This document shows, one piece after another, positions 678 to 13,778 of a DNA stretch of 15,014 bases; positions within the stretch are counted from its first letter, which is position 1, and each line of letters starts with the position of its first letter. Location: UHGV virus genome UHGV-0136760. The stretch is one strand, 5' to 3'. The DNA is from a virus. The notes beneath the pieces were generated by a model that was not told the DNA's origin, did no database searches, and saw nothing but the letters and a program-made list of their open reading frames with translations. Both the position numbers and the translations under genes were made by a program.

Positions 678-1283
678 TTAAGGTGTCAAATCAAGCGCCA
701 TCTTATAGAGCGTCATTTGGTCGGCATTGTGCCGTATAAAATCACTCTTACCGCCTACCTTTCCATCAGCATGAACGGGTACCAGCCAGGGATACTGTGT
801 CCGGACTTCTGCTGGCGCTGCATGTTGGTGATGCCATTTGCACAAAGGGAGGACATATTTATGTGCATCTGCGACTGTCCTGCCAAAAATGTGATGCAGG
901 GAGATGTGTGGACTATGCTTGCCATGCAACTGGCACGCAATACACGGTAAGGTGGCAATGGCACCCTGTATTCTGCGTTCTTCCGCTGTCAGTGAGCGCC
1001 CTTTTAGTCCGCGTGATGCACGTTTGGTTACTGCCACCTTTTTTACTTCCCCGGCAGAAGCCTTGCTCATAGCTTTCTCTTTTCGGCGTTCCTCTGCCTT
1101 CCTGACTGCTTCAATTTTTTCCTGACGATATTCAGGTGAAGCCAATTTTTCACGTGTGCGCTGATACTGGCGCTGTGCTCTCAAACGCTGTTTTTCCCGT
1201 TGTGATTCTCTCCACTCAGGATCGGACAATTTCTGTAGCGCTTTCTGGCGCTGCTTTTCCCACAGAGACAGTTTTTCTTTCAT
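678..1283 (-). CDS. HNH endonuclease, Ref-like (phage P1 recombination enhancement function family)
   Basis: 201-aa ORF. The N-terminal half is a highly charged K/R/E/Q-rich region; the C-terminal half carries an HNH/zinc-finger signature (CIACQLHGKHSPHISLHHIF ... LPLCKWHHQ). Assignment by motif recognition only. Confidence 0.65.
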   Translation of the reverse strand: MKEKLSLWEKQRQKALQKLSDPEWRESQREKQRLRAQRQYQRTREKLASPEYRQEKIEAVRKAEERRKEKAMSKASAGEVKKVAVTKRASRGLKGRSLTAEERRIQGAIATLPCIACQLHGKHSPHISLHHIFGRTVADAHKYVLPLCKWHHQHAAPAEVRTQYPWLVPVHADGKVGGKSDFIRHNADQMTLYKMALDLTP

Positions 1284-4303: not shown

Positions 4304-4597
4304 ATGAGTCAAGGTAACGGTGACGGAGCTGCAAAGTGCAGAATCTCCACTTGTTTGATTAATGACAGAAAAATAGAACCGTGCGCGGCGCTGGCACAAT
4401 CTCTGGAGCAGGATGCTGAATACACGACGCGAAAAGGTCTGCTGAAATACAAAATCTATAACCATGAATTAATTCATTCACAAGACCTGATCATGCTGCG
4501 GTCTGGTGAATTTTCTAAATCGCCTATTCGAGTTTCATTTTGCCCGTTCTGTGGTGAAAGTCTGAAAACGTGGGAAGCGGAGGCAACCAGTGAATAA
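4304..4597 (+). CDS. hypothetical small Cys-containing protein (97 aa)
   Basis: ORF with cysteine pairs (CRISTC ... CPFCG) suggesting a zinc ribbon. Its 3' end overlaps the start of paralog copy B by 8 nt. Confidence 0.5.
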   Translation: MSQGNGDGAAKCRISTCLINDRKIEPCAALAQSLEQDAEYTTRKGLLKYKIYNHELIHSQDLIMLRSGEFSKSPIRVSFCPFCGESLKTWEAEATSE

Positions 4598-5234
4598 CCG
4601 CTTTTACATGATGTGCTTGCGTGAAACTGTGGGTAATAACGCCTCATTCCATTGCCATAACGGCAATGGTTACAGTTCTGATATCGATCGCGCTCATGTT
4701 TACACGCTGGAAGAAGCCCAAAAAGCCTGGAATTGTGGACGAGATATCGATCAGCCTGTTTGCGCTGATAGCGTGGATGCAATGGCTGTGTGGCACGTTG
4801 ATTGCCAGTACATCCCTACAGAAAGCCTGATTGAGTCAGATTGCACTGCGTATGTGGCCTACAAAAAAGGTAGCTGGAACGGCAACGATGTTTACTGGCT
4901 TCAACACGGTGGATTGCCAACAGATGACTTCAGTAAAGCGACCATCTTTAGCGTCGCCAACAAAAACGAACCAGGAATAGTTTGGTTGCCATTTTCCATT
5001 GCTGATGCAGCAAAGCGTCGGACGTTCAATATCAATAACGTTAACCGCAGAACAATGGTTCAGGGCGCAGGTTTGGTCATGCCTGACTGGTTGAAAGAGC
5101 AGAACAGAAGAAAGAAGTCGCGAAGCGGGAAGGTGCGTTGGAATTGTCCGCATTGCGGAAAAATAACCTGGCAGTACAGCCCATATGATTTTGAAGGCTG
5201 TAGTGATTACAACTGTGAAGGATGGCGAGAATGA
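4590..5234 (+). CDS. hypothetical protein with C-terminal zinc-ribbon, paralog copy B (GTG start)
   Basis: 214-aa ORF, same length and same C-terminal CxxC...CxxC motif as 1846..2490. The central part is identical at the nucleotide level; the ends are diverged. Confidence 0.65.
   Translation: MNNRFYMMCLRETVGNNASFHCHNGNGYSSDIDRAHVYTLEEAQKAWNCGRDIDQPVCADSVDAMAVWHVDCQYIPTESLIESDCTAYVAYKKGSWNGNDVYWLQHGGLPTDDFSKATIFSVANKNEPGIVWLPFSIADAAKRRTFNINNVNRRTMVQGAGLVMPDWLKEQNRRKKSRSGKVRWNCPHCGKITWQYSPYDFEGCSDYNCEGWRE
4749..5017 (+). repeat. 269-bp segment identical to 2005..2273
   Basis: See paired repeat feature; offset between copies is 2744 bp. Confidence 0.75.
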
Positions 5235-10074: not shown

Positions 10075-10415
10075 GATTTAACGAAATCGATCACCCTATC
10101 CTGAACTTCAGAAAGAAGGTCTTTTTCACAAGCCAGGACGTCATGATATTGACGTTCTGGCCTCACCAGATGCCGAAGCCTCCCATTAAGCAGGATGGCC
10201 TCAGAAAACACTTTTACGCTGTGCTTTACCCCCTCTGCTTCACTTTTAAGCGTCAAAATAAAGCGCAATTGCTTAATTGCATTGGCATGATTCAGGTTCA
10301 ATACACGAATTTGCAGTTCGTCTATGCTATTTCGCAATGGGATTGATGCCACCACACTGGTGCAGTCTCTGATTGTCTGAATTGAACGGCTAACATTGAG
10401 AACGTTATTGTGCAT
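10059..10415 (-). CDS. hypothetical protein (118 aa), antisense to the main operon
   Basis: Long minus-strand ORF with plausible protein-like composition, divergent from the 10448 gene. Weak ribosome-binding site. Competes with plus-strand ORF 10062..10346. Confidence 0.35.
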   Translation of the reverse strand: MHNNVLNVSRSIQTIRDCTSVVASIPLRNSIDELQIRVLNLNHANAIKQLRFILTLKSEAEGVKHSVKVFSEAILLNGRLRHLVRPERQYHDVLACEKDLLSEVQDRVIDFVKSHPLH

Positions 10416-10447
10416 GTGCCTGATCCACTAACTCTAGGAGGTTTCTT

Positions 10448-10699
10448 GTGTCAGATCGAAATATAGCAGCTAAAAGCCAGGAAGAGCGAGACAAGGTGAA
10501 CGTAGACCTTGCCGCCAGCGGCGTTGCTTACAAAGAACGGCTGAATATACCTGTGATTGCAGAGCAGGTGGCCCGTGAGCAACCGGAAAACCTGCGCGCC
10601 TATTTCATGGAACGGCTACGGCACTACCGGAAGTTAAGCCTCCAGTTGCCAAAAGGGAGCGATCCGGTGTATCAGAACGAGGATGCACCAAAAAAATAA
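10448..10699 (+). CDS. hypothetical protein (83 aa), GTG start
   Basis: Strong AGGAGG Shine-Dalgarno about 7 nt upstream of the GTG. No recognised domain. Confidence 0.55.
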
Positions 10700-10784
10700 C
10701 GGCAAGATGGGGGAGAAATGTGATTAGCCCCCAGCGTGGCGCGCCTACAAACCCCGCTTTCACAAACTATGCCTTTTCAATGTA

Positions 10785-10804
10785 TACTGTATGAATAAAC
10801 AGTA
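10785..10804 (+). promoter_or_regulatory. LexA box (SOS box) TACTGTATGAATAAACAGTA
   Basis: Matches the CTGT-N8-ACAG consensus. Lies about 20 bp upstream of the UmuD'-like gene and overlaps -10-like hexamers. Confidence 0.7.
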
Positions 10805-10822
10805 TCATTGAGGTAAAACGCT

Positions 10823-11212
10823 ATGGGCTTCCCTTCTCCTGCGGCGGATTATGCAGAGAGCCGCATTTCTCTTGATCAGCAACTAATCAGACATCCTTCC
10901 GCGACCTACTTCATGCGGGCGGCAGACAGCCATCACCGTGAGGGAATATTGCAAGGTGCTTTGCTGGTGGTTGATTCCTCACTTACTCCGGTTGATGGTT
11001 CACTGCTTATATGCGCTATGGAGGGTGAATATCGCATAAAGAGATACAGGAAGTATCCGCGCCAGCACCTGGAGGATTTAAGCACCGGGAAGAAAGAGGC
11101 GTTACCAGTAGATGACGATGGATGCACGGGCAGTAATGCTGTGTTTGGTGTGATCACTCATGTCATTAATGATGCCCGAAGTGGGGAGTTTGATTATAGA
11201 CCTGTGATTTAA
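10823..11212 (+). CDS. UmuD'-like protein (S24 LexA/UmuD peptidase fold lacking the N-terminal arm; P1 HumD-like)
   Basis: Starts MGFPSPAADYAE, i.e. at the position corresponding to the UmuD to UmuD' cleavage site. Colinear with E. coli UmuD' through to FGVITHVI. GAGGTAAAA Shine-Dalgarno. Confidence 0.8.
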   Translation: MGFPSPAADYAESRISLDQQLIRHPSATYFMRAADSHHREGILQGALLVVDSSLTPVDGSLLICAMEGEYRIKRYRKYPRQHLEDLSTGKKEALPVDDDGCTGSNAVFGVITHVINDARSGEFDYRPVI

Positions 11213-11223
11213 GGCGCATAAAG

Positions 11224-11252
11224 AAGCCCGCCAGACCTGGCGGGCTTTTTGT
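11224..11252 (+). terminator. Rho-independent terminator (10-bp GC-rich stem, GACC loop, T5 run), probably bidirectional
   Basis: AAGCCCGCCA-GACC-TGGCGGGCTT followed by TTTTT, placed between the convergent stops at 11212 and 11258. The reverse strand has a T-rich tail after the same hairpin. Confidence 0.75.
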
Positions 11253-11257
11253 TGATA

Positions 11258-12352
11258 TCATTCAATGATTTTTTCGGCTGTCAGCCAGCTAATTTCGTGC
11301 CTGTCTTTCGGCGGTTTTAGCATGTGAGCATATTCAGCGACATGCTCCCACGGAATTGTTTTTGCCCACTCAACGATAGCATTGTGATCTGCAGTGAAGA
11401 GTGGAATAGTGTGCGATTTCAACCATTCTAATGTCGTGACGCCATGTTTTTTGGCGTGGTGCTGCGCATGATGCCGGGCTATCACTCGTAATGGCATTGT
11501 CCATTCACTACCATCAGGCATCGAAAAGCGCATTGTCTTCGGCATATCTGATTCAAGAACAGCCTCCCTAATACCAGGGAACTCACCAAGAATCATACGA
11601 CGATAGTCATCACTATTTCGCCCGCCATACCTTTCGGCAAAATGATCAAGATATTCTTGGGTAATAAATGGTGAATCCTCCGCACTCAGCTTAATGGCTT
11701 TATATACACCACTCGGATTATCTTCAGCTAAAGCACGTCCATGATGTGAATCATAAAAAAAGCCTATTTCCTCTGGTGACGGAATTGAAGTGAGCAATAT
11801 GCGTGAATCACCACTAGTCATGCTTGCCCACACAATGCTGTATGCCCGATCGCTGATATGTGCGGAATCCACAATAATGAATAAAAGATGGTCGGCGTAG
11901 TGACCTGCAATGCTATCTTCATAGTTAAGGCGGTAGTTACAAAAGCACATTCCCCAAAATTCATTGAACATCAGACCGCTATCACCGACCTTAAAATACT
12001 CAATGATAAAAGGTTGTTTTTTCAGCAATGCCTCCCAACATTGCCACACATATGCAACAATTCCTCTTTTGCAAACATTTGATTTTGGATAAACAATTAC
12101 TGTCCGGGAATCAGGATACATAATCGTATAAAGGGTACTAATAACAGCAAGCACTTGCGGTCGTCCGATCCCATACGGAGTGGTGACAGTAGCTTTTGCA
12201 TTATTGGGCTGTATAGCTTCAACAATTTGTTGTTGCTGGTGGCTTAAATCAATATCAAACAATTCTTTTGCTGCCAGTACCCAATTGTCTTTATATTTCT
12301 CCACCAGCGACAGCCAGCGCGGATCTTTATAAATATTGCTCTTAGTCGCCAT
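11258..12352 (-). CDS. terminase large subunit-like ATPase-domain protein (no nuclease domain)
   Basis: Start taken at the internal ATG at 12352 (MATKSNIYK...), which has an AAGGAAG Shine-Dalgarno and overlaps the upstream stop. Terminase-like motif order: P-loop-like GIGRPQ, Walker B-like LLFIIVDSAH, motif III-like LLTSIPSPEE, then YRRMILGEF. Only 364 aa. Confidence 0.5.
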   Translation of the reverse strand: MATKSNIYKDPRWLSLVEKYKDNWVLAAKELFDIDLSHQQQQIVEAIQPNNAKATVTTPYGIGRPQVLAVISTLYTIMYPDSRTVIVYPKSNVCKRGIVAYVWQCWEALLKKQPFIIEYFKVGDSGLMFNEFWGMCFCNYRLNYEDSIAGHYADHLLFIIVDSAHISDRAYSIVWASMTSGDSRILLTSIPSPEEIGFFYDSHHGRALAEDNPSGVYKAIKLSAEDSPFITQEYLDHFAERYGGRNSDDYRRMILGEFPGIREAVLESDMPKTMRFSMPDGSEWTMPLRVIARHHAQHHAKKHGVTTLEWLKSHTIPLFTADHNAIVEWAKTIPWEHVAEYAHMLKPPKDRHEISWLTAEKIIE

Positions 12353-13109
12353 CTGCCACTTCCTTAACTTCTTCTTTGGCCTGTTCTGCAATCGCCGCAC
12401 GGCATTTCGCCCTGGCTGTAGCGATTGCTTCAGCTCGCACATCGTCTGGAATCGTTGACGTGATATACATATCCAGTTCTTCGGCACGGAATACTGTTTG
12501 GTCCAGATATTCGCGTAGCATCCAGGTAAATTCGAAATCACACGCGATAATCTCTGCGCTACCTTCTGCACCATTTGGGAAATGAATAAATGCCTGTTTA
12601 GCCAAACCGATAACACGACATGCGGTTGCCAAAACAGCGACAACCAGGTTTACATTTTCACACGCTACGGGCTGATTAACGCCGGAGATTACTCCATTTA
12701 ACTGTCGGTTATATGGAAGGTAGTTTGAGATGCGTTCTACGCGCCATGTGCCAGTCAGGCTGCCATTTTTAAAGATAATTGGTGTAACGGATAGCCCAAG
12801 CTCGCGTATAAGTCGTTGCGCTATAGCAGGATCATTAAACAGGTCTAATGCTACACATTCGAAAGACTGCGCAAGGGCAAACAGTTCTTCCAGAGAGTAG
12901 TCTTTGCCCCTGGCGGTGATGTAACGACGAACGCCGCTGTCTGCATCACTCCATATAGCTACGCCATGCTCTTCATTCAGCTCTTCATTAAAGCCGAGAT
13001 ACGTCATGATAGTGCGTTCAATCGTGTCAAACGGCAGTGACATGTCGGCGTTAACAGCCACCAGCAGGCCATTACGCAAGCGGTATTGAATTGTTTTAGT
13101 GCTTTCCAT
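12342..13109 (-). CDS. hypothetical protein (255 aa)
   Basis: ORF with a GGAG Shine-Dalgarno. Acidic Ala-rich C-terminal tail. No recognised domain. Confidence 0.55.
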   Translation of the reverse strand: MESTKTIQYRLRNGLLVAVNADMSLPFDTIERTIMTYLGFNEELNEEHGVAIWSDADSGVRRYITARGKDYSLEELFALAQSFECVALDLFNDPAIAQRLIRELGLSVTPIIFKNGSLTGTWRVERISNYLPYNRQLNGVISGVNQPVACENVNLVVAVLATACRVIGLAKQAFIHFPNGAEGSAEIIACDFEFTWMLREYLDQTVFRAEELDMYITSTIPDDVRAEAIATARAKCRAAIAEQAKEEVKEVADGD

Positions 13110-13115
13110 GTCAAA

Positions 13116-13778
13116 TCACTCCACAACAAACCAGTCACAGGCCAGCAGGTCGCCAACTGAAGGCACCCACGGAACAACTACACCTTGTGCATTTTTTAAG
13201 GCGAAATAAGCACCATACGGAACGAGGTCGCCGGGGAAATATCCCTTAATGGCTTCCATTCGTGCCGGGTGCTGTCCTTCAGGAACCAGCCAGCAGAATT
13301 GGTCTTCGCCGTTCCACCCGCGTCGAGCAACTTTCTTGCCATCCTTCATCCACATCAGCGCGTCAGAAAAGTCGGCTGCTTCAAGGTCGATTTCTTCTTG
13401 TAGAGTAGCGATACCGCCAGCAGAAATAGTTACGTCCCTGGCTGTAATGAATGTCACCCCATTGTGACCTTCAATGCTGAGCGATACCCCATTTTCGGAG
13501 GCGTCGTTAACCCGGCTATAGCATTTTTCAAATGCTTTCTCTGGCACATAGACCAGATAACCATTTTCAGCAGTGACGAGATATCCTCCTATTTGCGGTC
13601 GGAACTTTTCCAAGAACACACCATCAACACGAAGCGTCATTCCTTTTGGCTCCACGACTTCGATGCTGCCAAAAATGGGCGCATAAGCTTTGCCGACAAT
13701 AACAATATCTTTGATTTTCGATGCCCGAATGATGCTGTGGCATTTGTATTTGGGGAACACCTGAAAAGTGCTGGCCAT
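13116..13778 (-). CDS. two-domain protein with C-terminal DUF2829 (Tad2-like) domain
   Basis: C-terminal ~90 aa (FSDALMWMKDGKKVARRGWNGEDQFCWLVPEG ... VVPWVPSVGDLLACDWFVVE) matches the DUF2829 signature. The N-terminal ~125 aa is an unrelated domain. GAGGAAGG Shine-Dalgarno. Confidence 0.6.
   Translation of the reverse strand: MASTFQVFPKYKCHSIIRASKIKDIVIVGKAYAPIFGSIEVVEPKGMTLRVDGVFLEKFRPQIGGYLVTAENGYLVYVPEKAFEKCYSRVNDASENGVSLSIEGHNGVTFITARDVTISAGGIATLQEEIDLEAADFSDALMWMKDGKKVARRGWNGEDQFCWLVPEGQHPARMEAIKGYFPGDLVPYGAYFALKNAQGVVVPWVPSVGDLLACDWFVVE

Follow-up and report, generated by a model that had tools for sequence, protein, structure and literature searches.

RecA-mediated cleavage of UmuD between Cys24 and Gly25 exposes Gly25, the first residue of UmuD', which is a subunit of the error-prone DNA polymerase V (Pol V). 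In phage P1, the humD product corresponds to this pre-cleaved form; the P1 gene, the pre-cleaved nature of its product, its LexA box and its missing umuC partner were all described in the 1990s. P1 HumD reportedly forms dimers and binds both UmuC and RecA filaments, and it is said to restore mutagenesis and ultraviolet survival in umuD-defective backgrounds. The product note in the P1 sequence record reads 'functionally complements E. coli UmuD''. The analysis described here concerns a stretch of 15,014 nucleotides from UHGV virus genome UHGV-0136760, which is referred to as a whole as the window. The window carries the humD gene of a P1/D6-like phage-plasmid of Escherichia coli, an already known gene whose identical RefSeq copies are already named. 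Taken as a whole, the evidence makes it very probable that this is humD of such an element and that it encodes a ready-made UmuD', induced in the SOS response, for use by host UmuC.

The protein translated from the open reading frame at 10823-11212 has the N-terminus MGFPSPAADY. In a HMMER comparison with solved chains (E = 6e-23), its Gly2 falls opposite residue 1 of UmuD' (1umu) and opposite residue 25 of full-length UmuD (8gmt_B). An in-frame stop lies two codons upstream of the ATG, and therefore no longer N-terminal form of HumD is possible. An earlier note on this DNA had proposed a pre-cleaved UmuD'-like protein that starts at the equivalent of the UmuD cleavage site and had likened it to P1 HumD. 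The position of Gly2 and the upstream stop bear out the former proposal. The likeness is equally well founded, since the protein is 95% identical to P1 HumD (YP_006569.1) across all 129 residues and matches the HumD family model over its full length. Its identity to E. coli UmuD is 45%.

Family models agree on the identity of the protein. The NCBIfam equivalog NF051876 'HumD family translesion DNA polymerase' scores 209.4 bits against a cutoff of 120 (E = 1.4e-62), with HumD residues 1-129 matched to positions 1-129 of the 129 in the profile. The NCBIfam model for the UmuD subfamily, the autoproteolytic subunit of Pol V (NF007621), gives 86.8 bits, under its cutoff of 110; the 24 N-terminal residues typical of UmuD, the arm that includes the Cys24-Gly25 site, are absent, and the protein is not a full-length UmuD. 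Pfam Peptidase_S24 (PF00717) is recognized at 35.1 bits (cutoff 23.3), and in PHROGs the protein is assigned to phrog_811 'UmuD-like protein' (2e-54). Identity as LexA or as an S24 repressor of the phage CI type was considered and rejected, as HumD consists of the S24 domain alone, without an N-terminal winged-helix or helix-turn-helix domain. The LexA model TIGR00498 scores only 25.8 (cutoff 110.95), with a match confined to the C-terminal half of the profile. The product is 95% identical to HumD of RCS47 and 94% identical to that of D6. Compared to other P1-like alleles, the ratio of nonsynonymous to synonymous substitution rates (dN/dS) is 0.05-0.11 at dS up to 0.8, and therefore humD is maintained by selection. 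On sequence grounds the gene is an orthologue of P1 humD, and not merely a HumD-like gene.

Structure prediction is consistent with this assignment. An AlphaFold model of HumD built on 37 homologues has a mean predicted local distance difference test score (pLDDT) of 76, with 83-89 in the core. Its best matches in the PDB are the UmuD' entries 1umu, 1ay9 and 8gmt, with target-normalised template modeling scores (TM-scores) of 0.79-0.80 and a probability of 1.00. E. coli UmuD and UmuD' (1umu, 1ay9, 1i4v and 8gmt) thus share with HumD the fold (TM-score 0.80), in addition to the sequence identity mentioned above, the positions of a Ser-Lys dyad and control by LexA, which for humD is predicted from sequence. 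Unlike E. coli UmuD, HumD is without the 24-residue N-terminal arm and so has no need for RecA-mediated cleavage, and humD, unlike umuD, is not in an operon with umuC. HumD is also about 10 residues longer at the C-terminus.

The region in front of humD contains the signals expected of an SOS gene (Table 1). The 20-mer TACTGTATGAATAAACAGTA at 10785-10804 is the sole perfect CTGT-N8-ACAG in the window. It is also the sole site with three or fewer mismatches to the 20-bp palindromic LexA consensus TACTGTATATATATACAGTA, which it matches at 17 of 20 positions. No site of this quality arose in 200 dinucleotide-preserving shuffles. The P1 record labels the equivalent 20-mer 'LexA binding site in the regulatory region of lxr and humD'. 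The box, the Shine-Dalgarno sequence and the start codon are kept in P1, RCS47, D6 and a Shigella dysenteriae plasmid, while the sequence farther upstream diverges. The near-consensus LexA box that the earlier note placed directly upstream of the gene is therefore unique in the window, does not appear by chance in shuffled sequence and is conserved in relatives. The promoter-like site of humD agrees with the consensus at 10 of 12 positions. We infer that humD belongs to the SOS regulon, with LexA bound at this operator and the gene induced by damage. PMC9603915 presents humD as a LexA-regulated SOS gene. The P1 C1 operator (ATTGCTCTAATAAATTT, three or fewer mismatches) was not found in the window, and matches to the -22 element of LPhot, a late promoter of P1, were no better than chance and lay far from hot and humD; therefore there is no evidence for control by C1 or Lpa here.

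The neighborhood of hot and humD is common to the window, P1, RCS47 and D6. As in the window, the P1 gene (P1_gp103) starts at the N-terminus of UmuD', has a LexA box 38-39 bp 5' of the ATG, lies downstream of hot and has no umuC. Several differences are found within this shared arrangement. In P1 the LexA-regulated gene lxr separates hot from humD and runs in the opposite direction, whereas the window, RCS47 and D6 have no lxr; in its absence, the LexA box serves humD alone in the window. The promoter hexamers are nearer to the consensus in the window (TTCACA/TATACT) than in P1 (TGCACC/TGTACT). Six amino acids differ between the window protein and P1 HumD, including the tail, which reads DYRPVI in the window and DDCPVI in P1. 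Homology to P1 and RCS47 reaches no farther than 11213, just past the humD stop codon. Beyond this point, the phd-doc addiction module of P1 is replaced in the window by a terminator and a convergent gene for a 364-residue protein. D6 proper, unlike the window, retains phd-doc downstream of humD. The D6-like plasmids NZ_CP195379.1 and NZ_CP149812.1 give the identical finding for humD, and the remainder of the window is a mosaic in comparison.

The earlier note had also described a strong terminator at the end of the gene, and RNA folding substantiates it. A hairpin at 11221-11250, which starts 9 bases past the humD stop codon and is followed on the plus strand by TTTTTGTT, has a folding free energy (dG) of -24.7 kcal/mol (z = -5.1), and 0 of 200 shuffles were as stable. 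The minus-strand fold of the same hairpin has a dG of -19.3 kcal/mol (z = -3.6) and is followed by TTCTTTAT. Since the hairpin folds on both strands, the terminator is predicted to be bidirectional, and it can terminate both humD and the convergent 364-residue gene that ends at 11258. A consensus scan had returned no terminator in 10400-11500. This result was rejected as a false negative once folding revealed the hairpin; the scan probably missed it due to flanking A/U pairs, through which the stem reaches into the T-run. The phd promoter, not a terminator, comes after humD in P1, and the terminator belongs to the sub-lineage of the window. Comparable terminators are found independently in N15, phiKO2 and Cyrano.

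No umuC accompanies the gene. A Y-family polymerase (IMS) domain was not detected in any sizeable open reading frame of the window, and the 108 annotated features of NZ_CP195379.1, which is the closest complete plasmid whose humD is identical, do not include umuC. As judged from the window and from this annotation, humD is a stand-alone gene without a cognate umuC, as the earlier note had stated. E. coli plasmid NZ_CP195379.1 matches the segment 10740-11260 at 100% identity, as does NZ_CP149812.1 the segment 11150-13200. The identical humD product is present in RefSeq as WP_032342035.1, named either 'HumD family translesion DNA polymerase' or 'S24 family peptidase'. NZ_CP195379.1 is a complete plasmid of 89 kb with phage head, tail, portal and terminase genes as well as plasmid replication and partition genes. 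Among 5426 complete E. coli genomes, 684 (approximately 1 in 8) carry the humD region, with 699 of the 716 places located on plasmids. The window as a whole represents a D6-like phage-plasmid backbone with mosaic accessory genes; the best coverage by a single record in the phage, plasmid and complete E. coli genome collections is at most 65%. The mosaic of the early and accessory region is peculiar to this element; its genes (Ead/Ea22, DUF551, ASCH, DUF968 and others) are shared with lambdoid and Stx phages.

The proposed mechanism is as follows. In an undamaged lysogen, host LexA bound to the operator over the -10 hexamer and the start site would keep humD off, as the position, sequence and conservation of the site suggest. 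Upon DNA damage, RecA would become active and LexA would be cleaved, leading to a short monocistronic humD transcript that ends at the hairpin past the stop codon. HumD would be made in the UmuD' form, beginning at the residue that self-cleavage exposes in UmuD, as the alignment and the structure model indicate. Because the product starts at the UmuD' residue, no RecA-mediated activation step would be needed. By analogy with the P1 protein, HumD would dimerise and join host UmuC to form a Pol V-like translesion polymerase, and would also contact RecA filaments. The element would thereby supply, upon SOS induction, a late and rate-limiting component of SOS mutagenesis and lesion bypass without a polymerase gene of its own.

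Table 1. Features of the humD locus and of other parts of the window (positions are those of the window).
Feature	Position	Strand	Details
humD coding sequence	10823..11212	+	ATG start, 129 aa + stop; protein begins MGFPSPAADYAESR
Sigma-70-type promoter of humD	10759..10788	+	-35 TTCACA (10759-10764), 18-nt spacer, -10 TATACT (10783-10788)
LexA operator (SOS box), predicted	10785..10804	.	TACTGTATGAATAAACAGTA; overlaps -10 hexamer and expected transcription start
Shine-Dalgarno sequence	10810..10813	+	GAGG, 9 nt 5' of ATG; invariant in alignment of P1-like alleles
Intrinsic terminator, predicted to be bidirectional	11221..11253	.	GC-rich hairpin 11221-11250 (core 11226-11245), T-run on plus strand
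hot, DNA polymerase III theta subunit homologue	10448..10699	+	Pfam PF06440, E = 5.6e-33; directly upstream of humD
Gene for 364-aa protein	11258..12352	-	phrog_5902 (unknown function); convergent on humD
Gene for 220-aa protein	13116-13778	-	C-terminal Tad2-like (Thoeris anti-defence 2, PF11195/DUF2829) domain, E = 2.7e-22
Ref-family RecA-dependent nuclease	678-1283	-	PF16786, E = 5e-35

Stand-alone relatives of humD exist outside of the P1-like elements. A tblastn survey of 50,697 phage records identified 90 with a humD homologue, and seven distant homologues were compared: N15 gp26, phiKO2 gp23, HK140 gp28, HK639 gp28, APC_JM3.2, Aeromonas pAEv1818 (gp11) and Cyrano. All seven start at (M)GFPSP or a close variant and have, 34-64 bp 5' of the start codon, a LexA-type box; none has an adjacent umuC. 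The phiKO2 record itself annotates the LexA site, and the HK140 box precedes a two-gene unit divergent from dinI. A terminator directly follows the stop codon in N15, phiKO2 (both annotated) and Cyrano, the cases that were checked. The proteins of N15, phiKO2, HK140, HK639 and pAEv1818 have 49-67% identity to the window protein and share its conserved acidic C-terminal tail, but their genes are found in contexts that differ from the window, after tail-fibre genes or next to dinI, partition or integrase genes. A LexA box joined to a pre-truncated gene is thus a recurrent cassette of unrelated temperate phages, self-contained and moron-like, and it is closed by a terminator in N15, phiKO2, Cyrano and the window. 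Fragmentary homologues are also present in lambdoid and Stx phages, in which only residues ~45-128 match and nothing is annotated. In both phiKO2 (L007, 1181-1884) and HK140 (L008, 910-1890), the humD homologue is divergent from the phage dinI gene across a shared LexA box. The homologue and DinI, a RecA-filament-binding protein, would form a small SOS-modulating module in these phages.

Several observations weigh against a role of humD as an SOS-induced source of UmuD' for host UmuC. In the case of this copy, binding by LexA, induction by damage and contact with UmuC are all deduced from sequence. No terminator between hot and humD emerged from the consensus scan, which had also failed to detect the one past humD, and some LexA-independent read-through from hot into humD is possible. 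P1 HumD reportedly shows weak expression and needs a high-copy plasmid for good complementation. Given low expression in P1, the natural role of HumD may not be bulk mutagenesis. The tail of the window allele, EFDYRPVI, departs from the family pattern EFDDCPV(I/L/M). Finally, the results of a CRISPR interference screen (PMC10695390) place humD among the genes dispensable for P1 lytic growth, which fits an accessory role of benefit to the lysogen.

One alternative takes up this low native expression, which is reported for P1 HumD, and holds that HumD is mainly a modulator acting on RecA filaments, Pol III subunits or UmuD heterodimers to tune the SOS response, recombination or replication restart, with translesion synthesis a side effect of over-expression. 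The neighboring hot (Pol III theta homologue) and Ref (RecA-dependent nuclease) genes, whose products also target host replication and recombination, favor this role, as does the homologue beside dinI that shares its LexA box in phiKO2 and HK140. The conserved acidic tail, absent from UmuD-type proteins that bear the arm and unstructured in the model, suggests an extra partner. However, the UmuD' core is well conserved, with 45% identity to E. coli UmuD, and no experiment shows a RecA- or Pol III-modulating phenotype. P1 HumD is also reported to complement UmuD' function and to bind UmuC; its substitution for UmuD' is summarized in PMC7092418. A role primarily as a modulator is considered unlikely. 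It is harder still to regard the open reading frame as a non-functional remnant, in decay, of a umuDC operon whose 5' end and umuC were lost. The missing arm, the missing umuC partner and the fragmentary homologues in lambdoid and Stx phages are what such decay might leave, but humD is under strong purifying selection (dN/dS of 0.05-0.11 at dS up to 0.8), and an exact Met-Gly-Phe-Pro-Ser-Pro start with its own Shine-Dalgarno sequence, promoter and LexA box is present in every lineage. In addition, a curated equivalog family exists for the protein, and the P1 protein is said to be active. The selection signal and the intact expression signals exclude the remnant, which is scarcely credible.

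The fate of the catalytic dyad bears on a further alternative, namely that HumD has stayed active as an S24 serine peptidase and cleaves, in trans, a target such as host UmuD or a repressor. HumD Ser36 (10928-10930) and Lys73 (11039-11041) align with UmuD Ser60 and Lys97, and both residues are retained without exception among P1-like alleles. UmuD cleavage can occur intermolecularly, which also counts in favor of a trans-acting peptidase. However, the dyad is not conserved across the wider pre-truncated family. The serine is replaced by threonine in N15, phiKO2, HK140, HK639 and APC_JM3.2 and by glutamine in pAEv1818; the lysine is replaced by methionine in HK639 and by arginine in pAEv1818. 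Residues other than threonine and glutamine also occupy the serine position in pre-truncated homologues. Among 50%-identity representatives from a scan of 1.84 billion representatives, the lysine is retained in 9 of 28 pre-truncated proteins versus 8 of 9 full-length UmuD-type proteins, and the GDS(M/L) nucleophile motif is present in none of the 28 pre-truncated proteins. Because the dyad is eroded in relatives, the trans-acting peptidase was rejected as highly improbable. Erosion of the dyad would fit relaxed selection on catalysis once self-cleavage is unneeded. A ready-made UmuD' that is supplied to host UmuC upon SOS induction remains the preferred explanation for humD.

The acidic C-terminal tail distinguishes HumD-type proteins from UmuD. 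The window protein ends in SGEFDYRPVI, with the last nine codons at 11183-11209, and the consensus of pre-truncated HumD-type proteins is ...ND-A-R-x-G-E-F-D-D-x-P-V-(I/L/M)-COOH. The tail pattern matched nine representatives that start at the motif and 12 fragments or fusions, and was found in 0 of 63 UmuD-type representatives with the N-terminal arm. In the AlphaFold model, the tail is unstructured and of low confidence. The family tail resembles the C-terminal tip of SSB, MDFDDDIPF (PMC10164576; bioRxiv 10.1101/2020.03.03.975086), and one pre-truncated representative ends in GGEFDDTPF. A literature search found no paper that connects the HumD-type tail with the SSB tip. The tail could be a mimic of the SSB C-terminal tip (SSB-Ct) through which HumD or the HumD2-UmuC complex would dock onto SSB-client sites or compete there with SSB, but this is a speculative and quite improbable proposal. 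The window allele, EFDYRPVI, has a weakened version of the motif.

The co-directional hot and humD genes are separated by a gap of 123 bp (10700-10822). The convergent 364-residue gene sits where the phd-doc(-pdcA) addiction module lies in P1, RCS47, D6 and the Shigella plasmid. Residues 143-265 of its product form a weak terminase-large-subunit-like stretch (phrog_2, 9e-9), and no Pfam, NCBIfam, PADLOC or meaningful PDB match was obtained for it. The arrangement with this gene in place of the addiction module is present in at least 34 plasmids at a coverage of at least 80% of the 11150-13200 query. The gene is part of a minus-strand operon that converges on humD and comprises the Tad2-like gene, dut (named in the annotation of relatives), a gene for a 255-residue protein (phrog_2326) and the 364-residue gene. 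Within 11 kb the window encodes, in Ref, Hot and HumD, three small proteins that modulate the replication and recombination proteins of the host. Elsewhere in the window, a direct duplication of 630 bp with 92% identity (1852-2481 and 4596-5225) gives rise to two paralogous open reading frames of 214 residues (1846-2490 and 4590-5234), each with a 97-residue open reading frame before it; the pair brackets metallophosphoesterase and DUF968 genes. Neither Rfam, applied to the whole window with gathering thresholds, nor PADLOC, applied to HumD and its neighbors, gave any match.

Since a dedicated NCBI family model exists and identical copies are already named, the gene in this window has little significance beyond correct annotation. 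The modest additions of the survey are the recurrent pairing of a LexA box with a pre-truncated gene, the decay of the catalytic dyad and an acidic tail specific to the subfamily. If mimicry of SSB-Ct were true, phage UmuD' proteins would gain a means of recruitment that is not open to host UmuD'. Only thin work exists on how a UmuD' that is SOS-inducible and independent of cleavage affects the mutagenesis of lysogens, resistance mutation under antibiotic stress included, and the humD region is present in about one-eighth of complete E. coli genomes.

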